Assembly: GCA_046759165.1 (NCBI GenBank) | Contig: JBHIBS010000015.1 | Span: 1 to 39,976 of the forward strand | DNA length: 39,976 nucleotides | Reading direction: 5' to 3' | DNA from: a bacterium | GTDB taxonomy: Bacteria; UBA6262; WVXT01 | The notes under the pieces: generated by a model | Told to the model about the DNA's origin: nothing | Database searches by the model: none | Seen by the model: the letters and a program-made list of their open reading frames with translations, nothing else | Translations under genes and position numbers: made by a program | Shown: positions 5,022 to 34,372 of the stretch, piece by piece | Position numbering within the stretch: position 1 is the stretch's first letter | How the letters are laid out: every line of letters starts with the position of its first letter

Positions 5022-5033
5022 TTTTCTCGTTTT

Positions 5034-5071
5034 TTGGCTAAAATTCCAAAAGCTTTTCACAAACTATCTTT
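5034..5071 (+). repeat. 38-bp non-palindromic intergenic repeat, copy 1
   Basis: TTGGCTAAAATTCCAAAAGCTTTTCACAAACTATCTTT; gapless 33/38 identity to 15887-15924 and 32/38 to 26866-26903. Confidence 0.85.
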
Positions 5072-15143: not shown

Positions 15144-15485
15144 ATGCAGATTACGGAGGTGCGAGTCTACCCGAGGAACGAGGAGAAGTTAAAGGCCTTT
15201 GTTACCGTGACTTTCGACGACTCTTTTGTGGTTCGTAATCTAAAAGTGATCCAAGGGCAGAATGGGTTGTTTGTGGCGATGCCTTCGAGAAAAATGGCTG
15301 ATGGCAGTCATAAGGACATAGCTCATCCCATAAAGAACGAGGTTCGGAGAATGATTGAGGAGAAAGTTCTGGCTGCCTATCAGGAAAAGATTAAGGAGAC
15401 TCCTCCTCGAACCCAGTTTGGGGGCGGTGAAGAACCAGCAAAAGAACCAGCAAAGGAACCAGCAAAAGAAGAAGAGGAGAAATAA
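15144..15485 (+). CDS. spoVG: SpoVG family nucleic-acid-binding protein
   Basis: MQITEVRV, LKAFVTVTFDD, GLFVAMPSRK, DIAHPI; ATG 15144 behind AAGGAGG. Confidence 0.95.
   Translation: MQITEVRVYPRNEEKLKAFVTVTFDDSFVVRNLKVIQGQNGLFVAMPSRKMADGSHKDIAHPIKNEVRRMIEEKVLAAYQEKIKETPPRTQFGGGEEPAKEPAKEPAKEEEEK
15432..15467 (+). repeat. 3 x 12-bp tandem repeat encoding (EPAK)3 in the SpoVG tail
   Basis: GAACCAGCAAAA GAACCAGCAAAG GAACCAGCAAAA. Confidence 0.9.
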
Positions 15486-15506
15486 ACCCGCTTACTTCTC
15501 ATAGAT

Positions 15507-15577
15507 TGGGGAGTAGCCAAGCGGAAAGGCAGCGGCCTTTGGAGCCGCGACCATAGGTTCGAATCCTATCTCCCCAG
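15507..15577 (+). tRNA. tRNA-Gln(TTG), CCA not encoded
   Basis: Acceptor TGGGGAG/CTCCCCA, anticodon arm GCGGC-CTTTGGA-GCCGC, T-arm ATAGG-TTCGAAT-CCTAT. Confidence 0.96.
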
Positions 15578-15620
15578 TTTACATTTGTATGCACGGTTTC
15601 AAATCCTGCAACCAAAAATT

Positions 15621-15836
15621 TCAGGAATTAAAATATAATTTTAGTCATTGTTGAGGAATTTCTGACAGCAAAAAACTTCGGACTTTGCGAGACGTAAATC
15701 AAAACTCCTTCCTCTGTTTTAGTCGAGGCGTCAGACAATGATTTACTTGAAAGAGGAAAAGTGGAAGCATTCGGATTAAGAATCGGGGTGCGGATCAAGG
15801 AGTTTGTCTTTGCGCATAATCTGTTCCCCAAGGGGA
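15621..15836 (+). ncRNA. Candidate structured non-coding element, copy A (homologous to 21334-21537)
   Basis: Collinear shared blocks with copy B; helices retained through compensatory and G-U changes; family not recognised. Confidence 0.55.
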
Positions 15837-15886
15837 TCTGATAAAATTGGGTGAAGGTCCGGAAGGGAATATCTTGTCCACCTCTT

Positions 15887-15924
15887 TTGGCTAAAATTTT
15901 AAAAGCTCTTTACAAATTATCTTT
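15887..15924 (+). repeat. 38-bp intergenic repeat, copy 2
   Basis: TTGGCTAAAATTTTAAAAGCTCTTTACAAATTATCTTT. Confidence 0.85.
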
Positions 15925-15932
15925 CAAATTTT

Positions 15933-16022
15933 GTATCTAGAGAGCGAAGCTCTGCTAAAGGGAAGCAAAGCTTGCGCTTTGCCGCTACGGGAAAGGAATG
16001 TATTGGCAGAGCAAAGCCCTGC
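15933..16022. repeat. Cluster of three REP-like hairpins (forward, inverted, forward; BIME/REPIN-like)
   Basis: AGAGC-GAA-GCTCT (15941-15953); GCAAAGC-TTGC-GCTTTGC-CG-CTAC (15965-15988, reverse copy); GTAT-TG-GCAGAGC-AAA-GCCCTGC (16000-16022). Confidence 0.75.
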
Positions 16023-16095
16023 GTCAATGCAGGGGTGACACGCAGTTTACCCCGGCCAAGCGGCGTTGTTGCCAGATTATCGGTGGTGGACTATT

Positions 16096-17472
16096 TTGAG
16101 AAATCTTGTCTCCATTATTCTTGCGGCGGGGGAAGGTACGAGAATGAAATCGACCTTGCCCAAGGTGTTACACCAGATATGCGGCCAGCCGATGCTCGTT
16201 TATGTGTTGAAGGTTGTCCTGAAGGTTGGTTGCCGGAAGAATTACTTGGTGGTAGGACATAAAAAGGAGAAGATAATTGAAGTCTTAAGGAATTCTCTAC
16301 CGCTGAAGAAAAGAGGGATTGAATTTGTCAGCCAAACCAAGTTACTTGGCTCGGGACATGCGGTTCTTCAGGTGAAAAAAAATTTGAGAGATTATAGAGG
16401 AGATGTCTTGGTGATTTATGGTGACCTTCCTCTTTTGACTGGAAGAACTCTGAAGAGGTTAATTCAAACCCATTTTAAAGAGGATAACTGTCTGACTATC
16501 CTTGGTGCTCCTTTGGAAAATCCCTCTGGCTATGGAAGAATTATTGAAAATAGTAATGGGAAAGGGATAAGAATAGTGGAAGAGAGAGATGCTACCCCGA
16601 AAGAGAGGAGAATTAATCGAGTTAATGTTGGGGTGTACTGTTTTAAACTGAAAGATCTGTTTAGGGCAATAGATAAAATTAGGCCTGATAATAAAAAAAG
16701 TGAGTATTACCTCACGGACGTGGTGCAGATTTTGGGAGAGATGGGCAAGAAGGTAGGAATTGTTATAACTAAGGATTCCAGCGAAGTTGAGGGAGTAAAT
16801 AATCGAAAACAACTGGCAAACGTTCAGAAATATGTCAATATGAAAAACTTGGAACGTTTGATGTTAACTGGAGTTACAATTGTCGACCCACCTTCGACTT
16901 TTATCGATTCCACAGTAGGGATTGGGAGGGACACGATTATTTATCCTGGTTCGACAATTTTTGGGAAGACGAGAATTGGAGAGAATTGTAAGCTGGGTCC
17001 TTATGCCTTCATTCAGGATTGCCAGATAGAAAAGGGGGTGGAGATCCGAGCTTCCTTTATCTATGGTGCCAAAATTGCTGAAAGAGCGAAGGTTGGTCCC
17101 TTTTCCCACATCCGACCTGGGACATTCGTTGGAGGGGATGCTAGGGTGGGAAATTTTTGTGAAGTGAAAAAATCGAGAATTGGTCAGGGGACAAAGGTAT
17201 CCCACCTCTCGTATATAGGAGATGCCTTTTTGGGGAAGGGTATTAACATAGGTGCAGGAACAATTACCTGTAATTTTGATGGCGTTAGGAAAAACATAAC
17301 CCGGGTGGGAAACGGTACATTTGTTGGTTCGGATACAAAATTTATAGCGCCGGTCAAAATTGGAAAGGGTGCAGTCATTGGTGCTGGCTCAATCATTACA
17401 GAGGACGTACCTGCGGGTAAATTGGCCATTGCCAGAGCAAGGCAAGTAATTAAGAAGAAGAAAAAGATGTAG
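16096..17472 (+). CDS. glmU: Bifunctional GlcNAc-1-P uridyltransferase/acetyltransferase
   Basis: ILAAGEGTRMKS, PKVLH, EYYLTD, hexapeptide repeats, HLSYIGD, ITCNFDG; start moved to TTG 16096. Confidence 0.97.
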   Translation: MRNLVSIILAAGEGTRMKSTLPKVLHQICGQPMLVYVLKVVLKVGCRKNYLVVGHKKEKIIEVLRNSLPLKKRGIEFVSQTKLLGSGHAVLQVKKNLRDYRGDVLVIYGDLPLLTGRTLKRLIQTHFKEDNCLTILGAPLENPSGYGRIIENSNGKGIRIVEERDATPKERRINRVNVGVYCFKLKDLFRAIDKIRPDNKKSEYYLTDVVQILGEMGKKVGIVITKDSSEVEGVNNRKQLANVQKYVNMKNLERLMLTGVTIVDPPSTFIDSTVGIGRDTIIYPGSTIFGKTRIGENCKLGPYAFIQDCQIEKGVEIRASFIYGAKIAERAKVGPFSHIRPGTFVGGDARVGNFCEVKKSRIGQGTKVSHLSYIGDAFLGKGINIGAGTITCNFDGVRKNITRVGNGTFVGSDTKFIAPVKIGKGAVIGAGSIITEDVPAGKLAIARARQVIKKKKKM

Positions 17473-17549
17473 TAGCAGAGCGAAAGTCTGCGTTATAATC
17501 ATGTCACTAGGAGCGAGTGAAAGGAGCGTGGTCCTGATGAATCGGGACT
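17469..17549 (+). repeat. GTAG REP-like hairpin plus partial inverted-repeat-family element
   Basis: GTAG-TA-GCAGA...TCTGC (17469-17491); 17497-17549 is 45/53 identical to 32950-33002. Confidence 0.8.
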
Positions 17550-21272: not shown

Positions 21273-21333
21273 GGAAGATGCACGGGGATTTGGTTCGCTT
21301 TTGAAGTCTTTGTTCTCTGGCCGGTGTCAAAAC

Positions 21334-21537
21334 TCAGGAATTAAAAGATAGTTTGTTCCTCGCTGAGGAATTTCTTTACGCCAAAAAGCTCAGGCTTTGC
21401 AGCGCGCAAATCAAAACTCCTGCTCTTGGGTCGTGGAACAATGATTTGCTCGGAAGAGAAGAAGTAAAAGCATCCCGATTAAGGATCAAGATGTGGATTA
21501 GCGGGTTTGGGGGGATAATCTGATTCCCCCAGGGGGA
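21334..21537 (+). ncRNA. Candidate structured non-coding element, copy B
   Basis: Homologous to 15621-15836; also enclosed by GGGATTTGGT/ACCAAATCCC (21285-21294/21548-21557) and TGTTCTCT/AGAGAACA (21311-21318/21541-21548). Confidence 0.55.
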
Positions 21538-21591
21538 GAAAGAGAACACCAAATCCCTCGCACGATAAATCGAAAAGGTAGGTTTGGGAAG

Positions 21592-24406: not shown

Positions 24407-25471
24407 ATGGAATTAGGAATTATTGGTCTTCCAAACACAGGGAAATCCACTCTCTTTAATGCTCTAACTGCGGGTCATGCTTCAGCTTCTAACTATCCCT
24501 TCTGTACTATTGAGCCTAATATTGGAATTGTGGAAGTTCCTGATGAAAGGCTGGAGAAACTGGGGGAGATTTATAAACCCCAAAAGTTGACCTATACTAC
24601 GATAAGGTTTTTAGATGTGGCTGGTCTAGCAAAGGGAGCATCGAAGGGCGAAGGTCTGGGAAACAAATTTCTATCGCATATTCGAGGGGTGGATGCTGTA
24701 GTCCACCTCGTTCGTTGTTTTCGAGATGAAAAGGTGGTTAATGTTATGGGAGATATCAATCCGGTGAGGGATATCGAAGTTGTCAACACGGAGCTTATGT
24801 TGGCAGATCTGGAAGTGGTAGGGCGAAATATTGAAAAATTGAGTGGTCGAGCTAAAAGCGGCGATAAGGAGGCTAAAGAGAAACTGAAATTACTCGAGGA
24901 GATGAGAGAAGGCCTGGAGAAGGGAATTCCCACAAGGAGAATAGAAGTCCCTGAAGATCTACGAGCGTCGTACAACTTACTTACAGCCAAGCCAGTTCTA
25001 TATGTGGCTAATGTGGATGAGAAAGACCCTGGTTTGGGAAAGAGGGTGGAAGAGTATGCCAAGGGAGCAGGGGCTGAGGCTTTGAGTGTGTCGGCAGAAG
25101 TGGAAGCTCAAATTGCTCAATTGGAGAAGGAAGAAAGGAAGAAATTTAGAAAAGAGTTGGGTATACAGAAGAGCGCATTGGAGCGTCTGATCCGATCTTC
25201 TTATAGATTGCTCGATTTAGTTACTTTTTTCACTGTTGTGGGGACCGAGGTGAAAGCCTGGACAGTAAAACGAGGTTCTTCAGCCGTATCGGCAGCAGGG
25301 AAGATACATTCTGATATGAAGAAAGGATTTATCAAGGCCGAAGTCTTCTCCTTTAAAGATTTAGAGAAAGGTGATGAAAAGACGCTACATGAGAGAGGAT
25401 TGGTCAGGATAGAGGGAAGGGATTACGAAATTCAAGATGGCGATATAGCGCGTTTTAGATTCCATGTCTAG
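24407..25471 (+). CDS. ychF: Ribosome-binding ATPase YchF
   Basis: GLPNTGKSTLFN, NYPFCTIEPN, GASKGEGLGNKFL, IHSD TGS domain. Confidence 0.97.
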   Translation: MELGIIGLPNTGKSTLFNALTAGHASASNYPFCTIEPNIGIVEVPDERLEKLGEIYKPQKLTYTTIRFLDVAGLAKGASKGEGLGNKFLSHIRGVDAVVHLVRCFRDEKVVNVMGDINPVRDIEVVNTELMLADLEVVGRNIEKLSGRAKSGDKEAKEKLKLLEEMREGLEKGIPTRRIEVPEDLRASYNLLTAKPVLYVANVDEKDPGLGKRVEEYAKGAGAEALSVSAEVEAQIAQLEKEERKKFRKELGIQKSALERLIRSSYRLLDLVTFFTVVGTEVKAWTVKRGSSAVSAAGKIHSDMKKGFIKAEVFSFKDLEKGDEKTLHERGLVRIEGRDYEIQDGDIARFRFHV

Positions 25472-25473
25472 AA

Positions 25474-25514
25474 CATAGACTATAGACATAGACCATAAAC
25501 TGTAGACTTCAGAC
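25474..25514 (+). repeat. Degenerate heptamer tandem array
   Basis: CATAGAC TATAGAC ATAGAC CATAAAC TGTAGAC TTCAGAC. Confidence 0.7.
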
Positions 25515-25542
25515 AAAAGAACAGGAAATGTGGATTTTTTTC

Positions 25543-26793: not shown

Positions 26794-26865
26794 AAGATGT
26801 CAATCTCTCCAGAAATATGCCGTCTGTTCTGGATCAGAATTCATACCTTCAATTTTCCCTATTTA

Positions 26866-26903
26866 TTGGCTGAAATTTAAAAAGCTCTTCACAAATTGTC
26901 TTT
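26866..26903 (+). repeat. 38-bp intergenic repeat, copy 3
   Basis: TTGGCTGAAATTTAAAAAGCTCTTCACAAATTGTCTTT; 34/38 identical to copy 2. Confidence 0.85.
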
Positions 26904-26921
26904 CCAAATGTTGTAGTAAAT

Positions 26922-30087: not shown

Positions 30088-30845
30088 AGAGAAATAGAAT
30101 AAAGGAAATTATAAAAAAAGGCAAAGTTGCCCTGGGTCCTTTTATGAAATTTACTGATCCAGCTTCAGTAGAGATTGCTGGAACGGCAGGGTTCGATTTC
30201 GTCATAATCGATATGGAACATGGACCGGTGTCGGTGGAGACTGCACAGAATTTGATAAGAGCAGCAGAGTTAGTCGATATCACCCCGATTATAAGAGTGA
30301 CTGAAAACGAGCCTGGATTGATACTCAGAGCTTTAGATATCGGTGCAGGTGGTGTGGAGGTTCCACAAATTGGGAATAGGGATGATGCCTTAAGGTTGAT
30401 TCAATCGGCCAAGTTTGCTCCCCAGGGAAGTCGCGGAGTTTGTCGCTTTGTGAGAGCCGCTGACTATTCTGCCTCGGATCGCTACAGATATTTTCAAGAT
30501 GCGAATAGAGAGACTATAATTATACCCCATATTGAAGGGACCAAGGGAATAAGTAACCTGGAAGAGATATTGTCCGTGAAGGGTCTCGACATTATATTTG
30601 TTGGACCTTACGACCTTTCTCAATCGCTTAATATACCCGGACAGGTGGAAGACCCCAAGGTCGTAAAGAAGATGAGAGAAGTAGTCAGTATCTCCGAAAA
30701 AGCTGGACTTGCCGTGGGAACATTTGTTGACGATGTCAAAGCTGCAAAAAAATGGATTGCTCAGGGGGTTCAGTATATCTCTTTTTCAGTGGATGTCGGA
30801 ATTTTCTACGAAGCCTGTAACAGTGTAGTGAGAGAACTTAAGTAG
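30084..30845 (+). CDS. HpcH/HpaI class II aldolase family protein
   Basis: GFDFVIIDMEHG, RALDIGA, FVGPYDLS. Confidence 0.9.
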   Translation: MKRNRIKEIIKKGKVALGPFMKFTDPASVEIAGTAGFDFVIIDMEHGPVSVETAQNLIRAAELVDITPIIRVTENEPGLILRALDIGAGGVEVPQIGNRDDALRLIQSAKFAPQGSRGVCRFVRAADYSASDRYRYFQDANRETIIIPHIEGTKGISNLEEILSVKGLDIIFVGPYDLSQSLNIPGQVEDPKVVKKMREVVSISEKAGLAVGTFVDDVKAAKKWIAQGVQYISFSVDVGIFYEACNSVVRELK

Positions 30846-30935
30846 CGGCAGAGCGATAGCTCTGCATTATAATTATGTCATTGCGAGACCCCATTGAAGA
30901 TCGGGACTTCGGTCGCTCGCTCCCTCGCATTGAGA
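30842..30935 (+). repeat. GTAG REP-like hairpin plus inverted-repeat-family element
   Basis: GTAG-CG-GCAGAGC-GATA-GCTCTGC (30842-30865); TGTCATTGCGAG...CTCGCATTGAGA, sharing GGGACTTCGGTCG..TCGCTCCCT with the 32955-33030 copy. Confidence 0.8.
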
Positions 30936-32926: not shown

Positions 32927-32954
32927 CTCGGGATTTGGTTTTGAATTACAATCA

Positions 32955-33067
32955 TGTCATTGCCAGCGACTGAAAGGAGCGTGGTGCCGATGAATAGGGA
33001 CTTCGGTCGGTTCGCTCCCTGGCAATGACAGGACAACCCCATTGTAGGCACAAATTTAATTTGTGCT
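32955..33067. repeat. Inverted-repeat-family element plus GTAG hairpin
   Basis: 12-bp IR TGTCATTGCCAG/CTGGCAATGACA (32955-33030); GTAG-GCACAAAT-TTA-ATTTGTGC from 33044. Confidence 0.8.
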
Positions 33068-33085: not shown

Positions 33086-34327
33086 ATGAGAAAGGTTTAC
33101 ATTTTCTTAGTCTTTTTCTTCCTAATAGGGTCGGTTGTGTTTCTCTCCTTTTTCCGTTCCAAGAGGGTAGCTGTCTCATCTTCAGCGGAAGTCGTGGTCT
33201 CAACGGGGACATTTGCCCGGGGTGATTCGCTGTACAGTTGTTTGAGTAGCCACGGAATTTCTCCCAGGGAAATTCTGGTTTTGGAGAAACTGCTCAATCC
33301 CCTTTTCGATACCAGAAGATGCTACCCGGGTGCCAGGTATGAGATAATTGCTTCTACTGGTGGAGTTCTGGAAGGATTCAATTACTATTTAGGACCTCTC
33401 GATATATATGGGGTTAAGAAATCTAGTTCTGGAGAGCTAATTGCCTTCCACCAGAAAATACCTTTACAGAAACGTACTCTTGGATTAGTAGGAAGAATAG
33501 AAACTTCTCTTTACGAGTCTACGGTGCAGCTTGGGCAGTCTCCAGAACTGATTATGAGGTTTGCCGATATATTTGCCTGGCAGATCGATTTCTTGACCGA
33601 ACCCCGTCCCGGTGATACTTTCAAGTTAATCTGGGAGAAGTATTACAAGCAAGGGGAAGAATTTTCCGACGGTCAAATATTGACTGCTCAATACATGGGT
33701 AAAGAGGGAACTCATACGGCAATACTTTTTGAAGACCCGGAAGGTGGTAAAGATTATTATACGATAAAGGGCGAATCCTTAAGAAAAAGATTCCTACGGT
33801 CCCCCCTGAACTATCGGAGAATTAGTTCATATTTCTCCTACAAAAGGTTCCATCCGATTTTGAAGTGCTATCGTCCGCACTTTGGTATCGATTATGCTGC
33901 TCCTTTGGGTACTCCAGTAGTGAGTATTGGAGATGGAGTGGTAACTTATGTTGGGTGGAAAGGGGACTATGGTAGGTTTGTTAAGGTCAGACATCTCAAT
34001 GGCTACTACTCCACTTATGGTCACCTCTCTCGATATGGAAGAGGAATCAGGAGAAGGGCTAAGGTGAAGCAGGGTCAGGTGGTAGGCTATGTGGGAGCAA
34101 CTGGTTTAGCTACAGGACCACATTTAGACTTCCGGGTAATTCGTAATGAGAAGTTCGTCAATTTTTTGAAGATTCAAATTCCCGCTACCGAATCTGTAAA
34201 AGATAAGTACACGAGAGAATTTGAGATAACAAAGAGAGAACGCTTATACCAGCTGGGAATACTCTCCACCTACCGTTCATTTCCCCACCTAGTAGAGCAG
34301 AAGTTTGAAGTAGCGTCAGAGCGATAG
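33086..34327 (+). CDS. M23 family murein DD-endopeptidase (MepM-like), membrane anchored
   Basis: N-terminal TM, FAWQIDF, RFHPILK, HFGIDYAAP, YGHL, TGPHLDF (HxD variant of the HxH motif). Confidence 0.9.
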   Translation: MRKVYIFLVFFFLIGSVVFLSFFRSKRVAVSSSAEVVVSTGTFARGDSLYSCLSSHGISPREILVLEKLLNPLFDTRRCYPGARYEIIASTGGVLEGFNYYLGPLDIYGVKKSSSGELIAFHQKIPLQKRTLGLVGRIETSLYESTVQLGQSPELIMRFADIFAWQIDFLTEPRPGDTFKLIWEKYYKQGEEFSDGQILTAQYMGKEGTHTAILFEDPEGGKDYYTIKGESLRKRFLRSPLNYRRISSYFSYKRFHPILKCYRPHFGIDYAAPLGTPVVSIGDGVVTYVGWKGDYGRFVKVRHLNGYYSTYGHLSRYGRGIRRRAKVKQGQVVGYVGATGLATGPHLDFRVIRNEKFVNFLKIQIPATESVKDKYTREFEITKRERLYQLGILSTYRSFPHLVEQKFEVASER

Positions 34328-34332
34328 CTCTG
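34310..34332 (+). repeat. GTAG REP-like hairpin overlapping the M23 gene end
   Basis: GTAG-CG-TCAGAGC-GATA-GCTCTG. Confidence 0.75.
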
Positions 34333-34372
34333 TATTATAAACTCTTACCTTCAAAAACACTCCTCCTAAAAA

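Follow-up and report, generated by a model that had tools for sequence, protein, structure and literature searches.

Two intergenic elements in a bacterial housekeeping gene cluster are probably decaying composites of two lineage-specific repeat families

Results and Discussion

Two diverged elements of ~210 nt, in the following called copies A and B, lie between the genes of the window, i.e., the whole 39,976-nt stretch of DNA analyzed here. Comparison with related genomes makes it probable that both are rearranged, decaying composites of two lineage-specific intergenic repeat families of the MITE/REP-like kind. The composite make-up itself was observed directly, as the modules of the elements occupy different spacers of one syntenic gene cluster in six genomes and as empty sites exist. 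According to the explanation put forward here, the first family would be a MITE-like foldback of ~185 nt, consisting of a left arm plus core (M1) and a right arm (D1), and the second a unit of two hairpins (M2). The corresponding features of the window are:

5026..5071, + strand: solo D1 (right arm only), spacer of dinB and the pyr genes (E 7.5e-08, foldback profile positions 137-182)
15506..15578, + strand: tRNA-Gln (UUG) (ARAGORN; Rfam tRNA, 62.7 bits); copy A begins ~45 nt downstream
15625..15761, + strand: M1 of copy A, foldback left arm plus core (nhmmer, six-copy M1 profile, E 6.7e-32)
15766..15835, + strand: M2 of copy A, two-hairpin palindromic unit (nhmmer, M2 profile, E 9.5e-17)
15856..15929, + strand: D1 of copy A, foldback right arm (profile positions 114-187, E 9.1e-10)
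21285..21294, + strand: outer inverted repeat bracketing copy B, left half (GGGATTTGGT, exact 10-nt match)
21338..21464, + strand: M1 of copy B (nhmmer, M1 profile, E 1.3e-35; synteny)
21469..21536, + strand: M2 of copy B (nhmmer, M2 profile, E 1.9e-17)
21548..21557, - strand: outer inverted repeat bracketing copy B, right half (reverse complement of GGGATTTGGT)
26857..26905, + strand: solo D1 in the spacer between rpsR and rplI (foldback profile, E 3.5e-05)

Genomic context and similarity of the two copies

All genes of the window are housekeeping genes encoded on the + strand. Their order is purA, lexA, dinB, pyr genes, DUF1015, TPR, ispE, spoVG, and tRNA-Gln, followed by copy A, then glmU, prs, ctc, pth, and a CitMHS-type permease, followed by copy B, and finally DUF502, H+-pyrophosphatase, ychF, rpsF, ssb, rpsR, rplI, dnaB, and alr. 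A blastn search of the window aligned copy A (15625-15835) with copy B (21338-21536) on the + strand at 70.8% identity over 216 columns (E 8.6e-22), and the next best match of copy A after copy B reached only E 0.03. Using nhmmer, the copies were placed at 15620-15840 and 21333-21538. Direct inspection of the sequence, blastn, and nhmmer therefore agree with the original prediction of two equally oriented ~210-nt copies at these positions, and the sequence blocks it had listed as common to A and B were found again by inspection and in a MAFFT alignment, which has a mean column identity of 78% when the flanks are included. A third copy of the element was not found in the window with the nhmmer profiles. 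Exact runs of 13-14 nt are expected at 71-78% identity, the median longest run being 13-16 nt in 20000 simulations. Four runs of at least 10 nt at the observed column identity of 65% were reached in just 1.3% of the simulations, so that the differences between A and B appear to be somewhat clustered.

A transposase, TnpB, IscB, IS110 recombinase, or reverse transcriptase next to a copy, for which the original prediction had recommended to look, was not found by Pfam among the 41 window ORFs scanned, and a RAYT transposase domain was absent from these ORFs as well. A blastn search with copy A against plasmid and phage records yielded no match.

Distribution of the modules in related genomes

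A search with GlmU gave 11 loci. Five of these (L001-L005) belong to MAGs labelled Clostridia, encode a GlmU 81-88% identical to the one of the window, and show a gene order identical to the window's. At 4-fold degenerate sites, L001-L005 have an identity of 0.60-0.79 to the window, and L001 and L002 one of 0.947 to each other. The loci L007-L011, which stem from MAGs of Planctomycetota (Tepidisphaeraceae, Phycisphaerales) with a GlmU identity of 37-42%, have the order glmU-prs-L25-pth-ssb-rplI in common with the window and contain none of the repeat modules.

A profile built from A and B matches the relatives in two separate pieces, namely M1 (~130 nt) and M2 (~70 nt). Searches of the window and the relatives by nhmmer with six-copy profiles of each module located them in the relatives as follows:

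M1, + strand (nhmmer): L002, pth/permease spacer; L004, glmU/prs spacer; L004 and L005, permease/DUF502 spacer
M2, + strand (nhmmer): L003 and L005, prs/L25 spacer; L001 and L002, ychF/rpsF spacer

In L001-L005, M1 thus occurs without M2 at four places and M2 without M1 at four places (nhmmer), and among the six genomes it is only in the window genome that M1 is joined to M2. All copies of M1 and M2 (12 out of 12) are located on the + strand. The sizes of the spacers vary widely: the one between permease and DUF502 measures 49 nt in L001 versus 319 nt in the window, and the one between prs and L25 is 15-24 nt long in four genomes, 177 nt in L005, and 239 nt in L003. Even L001 and L002 (94.7% at 4-fold sites) differ by a whole element at pth/permease. 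Overall, M1 was found in four different spacers and D1 in six, with empty sites in close relatives.

The foldback element

In all four M1 copies of the relatives, M1 is directly followed by D1, a 55-nt repeat that was found three times in the window by a repeat-family search. A weak minus-strand match together with a direct comparison of the arms identified D1 as the reverse complement of M1's first 45-60 nt. The complete elements span 183-198 nt, and their arms of ~60 nt begin with an inverted repeat of 17-18 nt, AATT-N-AAAAGATAGTTTG. When three complete elements of the relatives were folded, each adopted the shape of a single long imperfect hairpin, with RNA z values of -5.5, -5.7, and -6.7 and a DNA z value of -5.0; the opposite strand of one complete element folds at z -7.5. 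In a four-copy alignment of the arms, 95.4% of the cells of 38 pairs are paired and four pairs have changed on both sides, with fewer independent events than these cell counts suggest, since two of the four complete copies are orthologous. This pairing and covariation was reached by none of 500 shuffles, and slid controls were at most 56% paired. The G-U wobbles that had been read as pointing to a + strand RNA are not decisive, as the arms contain two G-T versus four A-C cells, the latter corresponding to minus-strand wobbles, and wobble counts in the arms hence show no strand preference. In M2, four cells are G-U, and C-A pairs are found among the unpaired ones.

Searching with a profile of the entire element yielded four complete copies, two copies reduced to the left arm plus core, both of them from the window, and ten solo right arms; the terminal motif is confined to the elements themselves across the 11 loci. 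The solo D1 in the rpsR/rplI spacer of the window is also present in that spacer of L001, L002, and L004. Within copy A, M1 corresponds to positions 3-125 of the foldback profile and to the first two thirds of the element as originally delimited. M2 sits between M1 and D1, i.e., inside the foldback, and together with ~20 further bases it separates D1 from M1 by ~100 nt, D1 thereby falling outside the original coordinates. Near copy B, no D1 was found by the foldback profile search, which indicates that it has been lost there. M1 of copy B shares its spacer (permease/DUF502) with complete foldbacks of L004 and L005, and the outer 10-nt inverted repeat around copy B also brackets the orthologous complete element in these two relatives. 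Furthermore, a third exact copy of GGGATTTGGT is located at 32930-32939 of the window, directly 5′ of a repeat at 32942-33002, and suggests that the outer element is also present elsewhere.

Regarding the sites themselves, a clear target-site duplication was not found around the foldback or M2, where only short or palindromic matches were seen. The foldback is flanked by AT/AT at two independent sites, with these bases continuing the palindrome, and a third site deviates from this pattern; short direct repeats next to M2 are not alike in A and B. Comparison of empty and filled sites shows replacement and not clean insertion. An autonomous element with matching ends was not seen in ~114 kb of this lineage. 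In L004 (11371-11414), the glmU frame enters the foldback at its left end, continues there for a few codons, and is terminated by a TAG in the terminal repeat. glmU of L004 thus ends inside the element, which has replaced the original end of the gene.

The second proposal of the original prediction, a non-autonomous mobile element that moves through a folded intermediate, is supported in a modified form, namely as a mosaic, nested and decayed, in which a MITE-like foldback is combined with a palindromic hairpin unit. The foldback, made up of M1 and D1, has inverted repeats at its ends, and its sites are filled in some of the genomes and empty in others. The modules might spread at the DNA level, either by recombination between repeats or with the help of a transposase that acts on the inverted ends in trans.

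The M2 hairpin unit and its strings

Hairpin 1 of M2 is a 25-nt palindrome starting with AGCAT. It forms a perfect 10-bp stem in the copies of four relatives and is identical with the proposed hairpin GCATTC/GGGTGC, which is therefore real. In copy A, this hairpin contains one mismatch and two G-U pairs and the 5′ arm of hairpin 2 is decayed. Copy B shows two mismatches and two G-U pairs in hairpin 1 and retains hairpin 2 in the form GGGGGAT/ATTCCCC, which includes one G-U pair. Over six copies, including two orthologous pairs, 89.2% of the cells of 19 pairs are paired, a value not attained by any of 500 shuffles, and hairpin 2 shows changes on both sides at four of its nine pairs between lineages. 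The earlier claim that the differences between A and B keep base pairing thus holds for the two M2 hairpins, as judged by six copies; for the three helices proposed in M1 it does not (see below).

In L001, L002, and L005, M2 is followed by further shared hairpins, resulting in a string of four or five hairpins over ~160-165 nt. Such strings fold at z -4.0 and -7.25 (minus strand -6.2). In L001 and L002, the string is located between a promoter-like site, TTGCAA-17-TATAAT, and the rpsF start codon, with a purine-rich GAGGA just 5′ of the ATG. Provided that the promoter-like site is used, the string of these two relatives would lie in the 5′ UTR.

History and decay of the copies

The element between permease and DUF502 is probably old, since it is present in the window, L004, and L005. 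The element between tRNA-Gln and glmU is missing from all five relatives, and copy A was therefore gained in the window's line. As A and B have an identical M1/M2 junction, the composite had a single origin, after which it was copied along with its arms. At pth/permease, the element is absent in L001 and present in L002, and D1 is kept there in L003 and L004; the difference in L001 reflects a recent loss or replacement. Differential loss and in-place replacement of modules can account for much of the patchy distribution, with only copy A requiring a gain.

Identity between A and B amounts to 0.82 for M1 and 0.77 for M2, which is near the 0.79 of 4-fold sites between the window and its nearest relatives. 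Similarly, copy B is 0.77-0.78 identical to the same-spacer copies of L004 and L005, near the neutral expectation. Among the relatives, same-spacer copies reach 0.91 for the foldback versus 0.69 at 4-fold sites, and 0.986 for M2 versus 0.71; the single-copy spacer between ispE and spoVG is conserved to a similar degree (0.86-0.94). Copy A folds at z -0.98 when its D1 is included (15625-15930). Perfect CCGAT-N-ATCGG palindromes are found 5, 6, 2, 5, and 2 times in L001-L005, respectively, with at most 0.2 expected in each case, i.e., 20 times in the 74 kb of the relatives with less than one expected. The 40-kb window contains none, but mismatched versions only. Two of these palindromic units are part of M1 in the copies of L004, at the position occupied by GTGATTTGC in other copies. 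Given the near-neutral identities and the lack of perfect palindromes, repeat families with intact members in the relatives appear to be represented in the window genome by decaying copies. With their near-neutral drift and their lost fold, the window copies probably do little.

Alternative explanations

That each 210-nt copy represents a free-standing structured ncRNA gene on the + strand, with local and long-range helices, is considered very unlikely. The like orientation and common blocks of A and B, the clustering of their differences (four exact runs of at least 10 nt, found in 1.3% of simulations), and the real, covarying hairpins of M2 would all fit such a gene. However, M1 and M2 are apart in all five relatives, so that the unit as such is not conserved. 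Neither can the long-range helix AAACTCCTT/AAGGAGTTT, which formed part of the original prediction and joins M1 to M2, be a conserved feature, since the modules it would connect are separable. When the three helices proposed in M1 were evaluated over six copies, they were 75.7% paired compared to 73.5% in shuffles, with 35 of 500 shuffles as high (80 of 500 for covariation). A hairpin GYAAATCA/TGATTTRC in M1, which shows one double change, has 93.8% of its cells paired, but it hardly varies and was equaled by 166 of 500 shuffles; in both L004 copies, a small CCCCGATTTATCGGGG palindrome takes the place of its 3′ strand. Moreover, the window copies fold no better than dinucleotide shuffles, with MFE z values of -0.86 (A) and -0.19 (B) on the + strand; the corresponding minus-strand values are +0.31 and -1.49. 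A consensus scan and reading of the sequence revealed neither a promoter-like site 5′ nor a T-run terminator 3′ of either copy. The search against Rfam, which had been suggested as a check, gave only tRNA matches for the window and L001-L005 at the gathering score (Rfam 15), and nothing near the gathering score was obtained for 15400-16100 with E values up to 10, leaving the element without a match in Rfam. A unit that splits in the relatives, M1 helices that fail their controls, the lack of an Rfam match, and the absence of excess folding thus all speak against the proposed multi-copy structured ncRNA. This removes a candidate for a new RNA class in this window and illustrates that a comparison of two copies can suggest helices that more copies do not support. 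It is even harder to believe that the copies derive by decay from a small protein gene, with a product of ~50-60 aa if encoded on the + strand or of ~70-80 aa if encoded on the - strand. In L002, an ATG overlapping the pth stop opens a frame of 51 aa across M1, and a similar frame starts from the permease stop in L004, but the most conserved nucleotide block is translated in differing frames from copy to copy and in three of six copies the two conserved "peptide" blocks do not share a frame. Frame 0 of the + strand is stop-free in four out of six M1 copies. Copy A contains an in-frame TAA in the + frame that is open in B, in accordance with the earlier statement that no frame is open across both copies, and a reading frame free of stops in all copies was not found. 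The window's minus-strand ORFs of 67 and 83 aa over the copies have no Pfam match, and on this strand each frame of every M1 copy contains at least one stop. The mismatches between A and B fall on the three codon phases 15, 22, and 25 times, i.e., without periodicity. A HMMER search against 1.84 billion protein representatives yielded two matches, of which one is relevant, a 76-aa ORF that evidently runs across a further copy of M1; the second, P0001, was rejected as a long and unrelated protein of repetitive sequence without an aligned stretch. A word-indexed search gave no match. Frames, stops, and protein searches hence speak against a coding origin.

A functional role of the modules has more in its favor. 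Nevertheless, it is considered rather improbable that they are selected cis-acting RNA or DNA cassettes, i.e., portable leader, processing, or promoter units for the gene downstream, with D1 acting near the promoter or as part of the leader and the M2 string forming a structure in the 5′ UTR. D1 is found shortly upstream of the start codons of prs, permease, DUF502, rplI, pyr genes, and glmU and is kept in the same spacer across several genomes; yet these downstream genes are functionally unrelated, and the corresponding spacer can be empty in close relatives without a visible replacement. The location of the M2 string of L001 and L002 between the rpsF promoter-like site and the start codon, with its own Shine-Dalgarno-like stretch, GAGGA, before the ATG, would suit a leader. 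In D1, by contrast, no -35/-10 pair with normal spacing was recognized on reading, and ordinary sigma-70-like promoters are present nearby. All copies are co-oriented with the genes, an argument that cannot separate a transcription-linked from a replication-linked bias because every gene of the window is on the + strand. Finally, same-spacer copies lie above the conservation of 4-fold sites and the arms covary, whereas the window copies are decayed. Same-spacer conservation and covariation of the arms fit a selected function better than pure junk, with the reservation that the single-copy ispE/spoVG spacer is about as well conserved. This leaves some room for a reading, doubtful as it is, in which foldback and M2 string are portable RNA-structure cassettes that punctuate housekeeping operons and are kept by selection on pairing; with the same reserve, they would serve as processing, stability, or translation-control points. 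The M1 core contains an invariant CUCCU-containing block, which could mask a Shine-Dalgarno-like stretch. If such a cassette system were true, the window genome would represent a lineage that is losing it. As candidates of another kind, D1 and M1 were considered as sigma-70-type promoters and rejected for want of a normally spaced -35/-10 pair, other sigma factors being possible, and resemblances to an integron attC site and a sigma-54 promoter were dropped on reading the sequence.

Returning to the preferred explanation of A and B as composites of two repeat families, the orientation of the surrounding genes implies that the modules would be read through in + strand operon transcripts. Intact versions are predicted to fold into long hairpins in such transcripts and could, by analogy to ERIC and Correia elements, affect mRNA processing or stability.

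Comparison with known repeats

Similarity in sequence of the foldback or M2 to any named repeat family was not found, and a text search of papers for four element motifs returned no paper, subscription journals being outside the coverage of this search. Some ERIC copies have internal insertions at fixed sites, comparable to M2 inside the foldback of copy A, and BOX elements are made up of boxA, boxB, and boxC.

Bacterial MITEs are described, in the parts of two papers dealing with them (Delihas, 2008, PMC2229807; Delihas, 2011, PMC3184786), as elements of 100-400 bp with terminal inverted repeats around a core, target-site duplications, and no transposase, the transcripts of which fold by pairing of their 5′ and 3′ ends. 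The foldback shares with them its size of 183-198 nt, the lack of a conserved frame, the terminal inverted repeats, and its presence at multiple non-orthologous sites. An end-to-end stem-loop of the MITE type is formed by the three folded elements of the relatives (z -5.5 to -6.7), but not by the window copies (z -0.19 to -0.98), in which the right arm is displaced (A) or missing (B).

The ERIC or IRU elements of enterobacteria, as far as they are treated in the same parts of these papers, resemble the foldback in being small, intergenic, imperfect palindromes with pairing between 5′ and 3′ ends, in their location in operon spacers, and in the absence of a transposase. According to these sections, ERIC is co-transcribed and affects mRNA stability, and Correia elements are proposed targets of RNase III (PMC2229807; PMC3184786). 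Unlike the foldback with its ~60-nt arms and 17-18 nt terminal repeat, ERIC is listed in one table with 7 contiguous pairs (PMC2229807), and the TA ends and target-site duplication ascribed to it in the excerpt concerned (PMC2229807) were not found in the foldback. In addition, there is no similarity in sequence, and the hosts differ, with ERIC occurring in enterobacteria and the foldback in an uncultured lineage labelled Clostridia. Correia or NEMIS elements of Neisseria are also similar in architecture: in the relevant portions of the two papers, they are given a core enclosed by terminal inverted repeats of ~20-26 nt, a total length of 100-200 nt, many intergenic sites that vary between close relatives, and long hairpins in their transcripts (PMC2229807; PMC3184786), all of which is similar to the foldback. 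Their TA duplication, IHF site, and promoter motif, on the other hand, were not recognized here.

For M2 and its string, the closest likeness is to REP or BIME and pneumococcal BOX elements, which also consist of short independent hairpins side by side and whose units occur in varying combinations at different sites. The passages of the respective papers define REPs as GTAG- or CGTC-tagged palindromes moved by RAYT (PMC3733652) and BOX as a transcribed, non-autonomous repeat array (PMC3184786). A REP is a palindrome of 20-40 nt with a GTAG or CGTC head, whereas hairpin 1 of M2 carries neither head; GTAG heads are, however, present on other modules of these spacers.

The lineage thus contains rich, fast-changing intergenic hairpin repeats in otherwise frozen housekeeping operons. 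The intact and decaying copies across species form a natural series that could help to decide between selected RNA structures and parasites as the nature of such repeats, and that could also show what keeps long palindromic arms complementary. As the modules create spurious ORFs and extend gene ends, as for glmU of L004, they are also relevant to annotators.

Additional repeats and annotation points

Another intergenic repeat family, consisting of a TATAAT stretch followed by a GTCAYTGCGAGCGA-like sequence, was noticed in the window at 17489-17549, 30840-30887, 32942-33002, and 34308-34340. In the glmU/prs spacer of L001 and L003, a full palindrome GTCATTGCGAGCGA...CGCAATGAC is present. REP-type palindromes with a GTAG head (TGTAGGGGCGAC...GTCGCCC and GTAGGGACAGACCGCCGTGTCTGTCC) fill spacers of the relatives at the following positions:

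L001: 12100-12160
L002: 11420-11530, 15530-15620, and 19580-19700
L005: 1960-2080

Two of the REP-type palindromes of L002 stand in tandem after ychF. Just 3′ of ychF, the window (25470-25530) has a short run of ATAGAC/TAGAC-like repeats, and REP-type palindromes are found at this place in L001 and L002. In L005 (10500-10730), about a dozen tandem units of ~18-19 nt (GTCAGGATGACAGAGAAA-like) are located between ychF and the rpsF promoter-like site, an array that is absent from the other genomes compared.

It is uncertain whether glmU begins with the TTG listed at 16066 (window 15972-16262 and 16066-17472). When GlmU was compared with the relatives by tblastn, the matches began at residue 4-5, and in the relatives the start appears to be a GTG after ...TATGGGTG/TATCGGTG.
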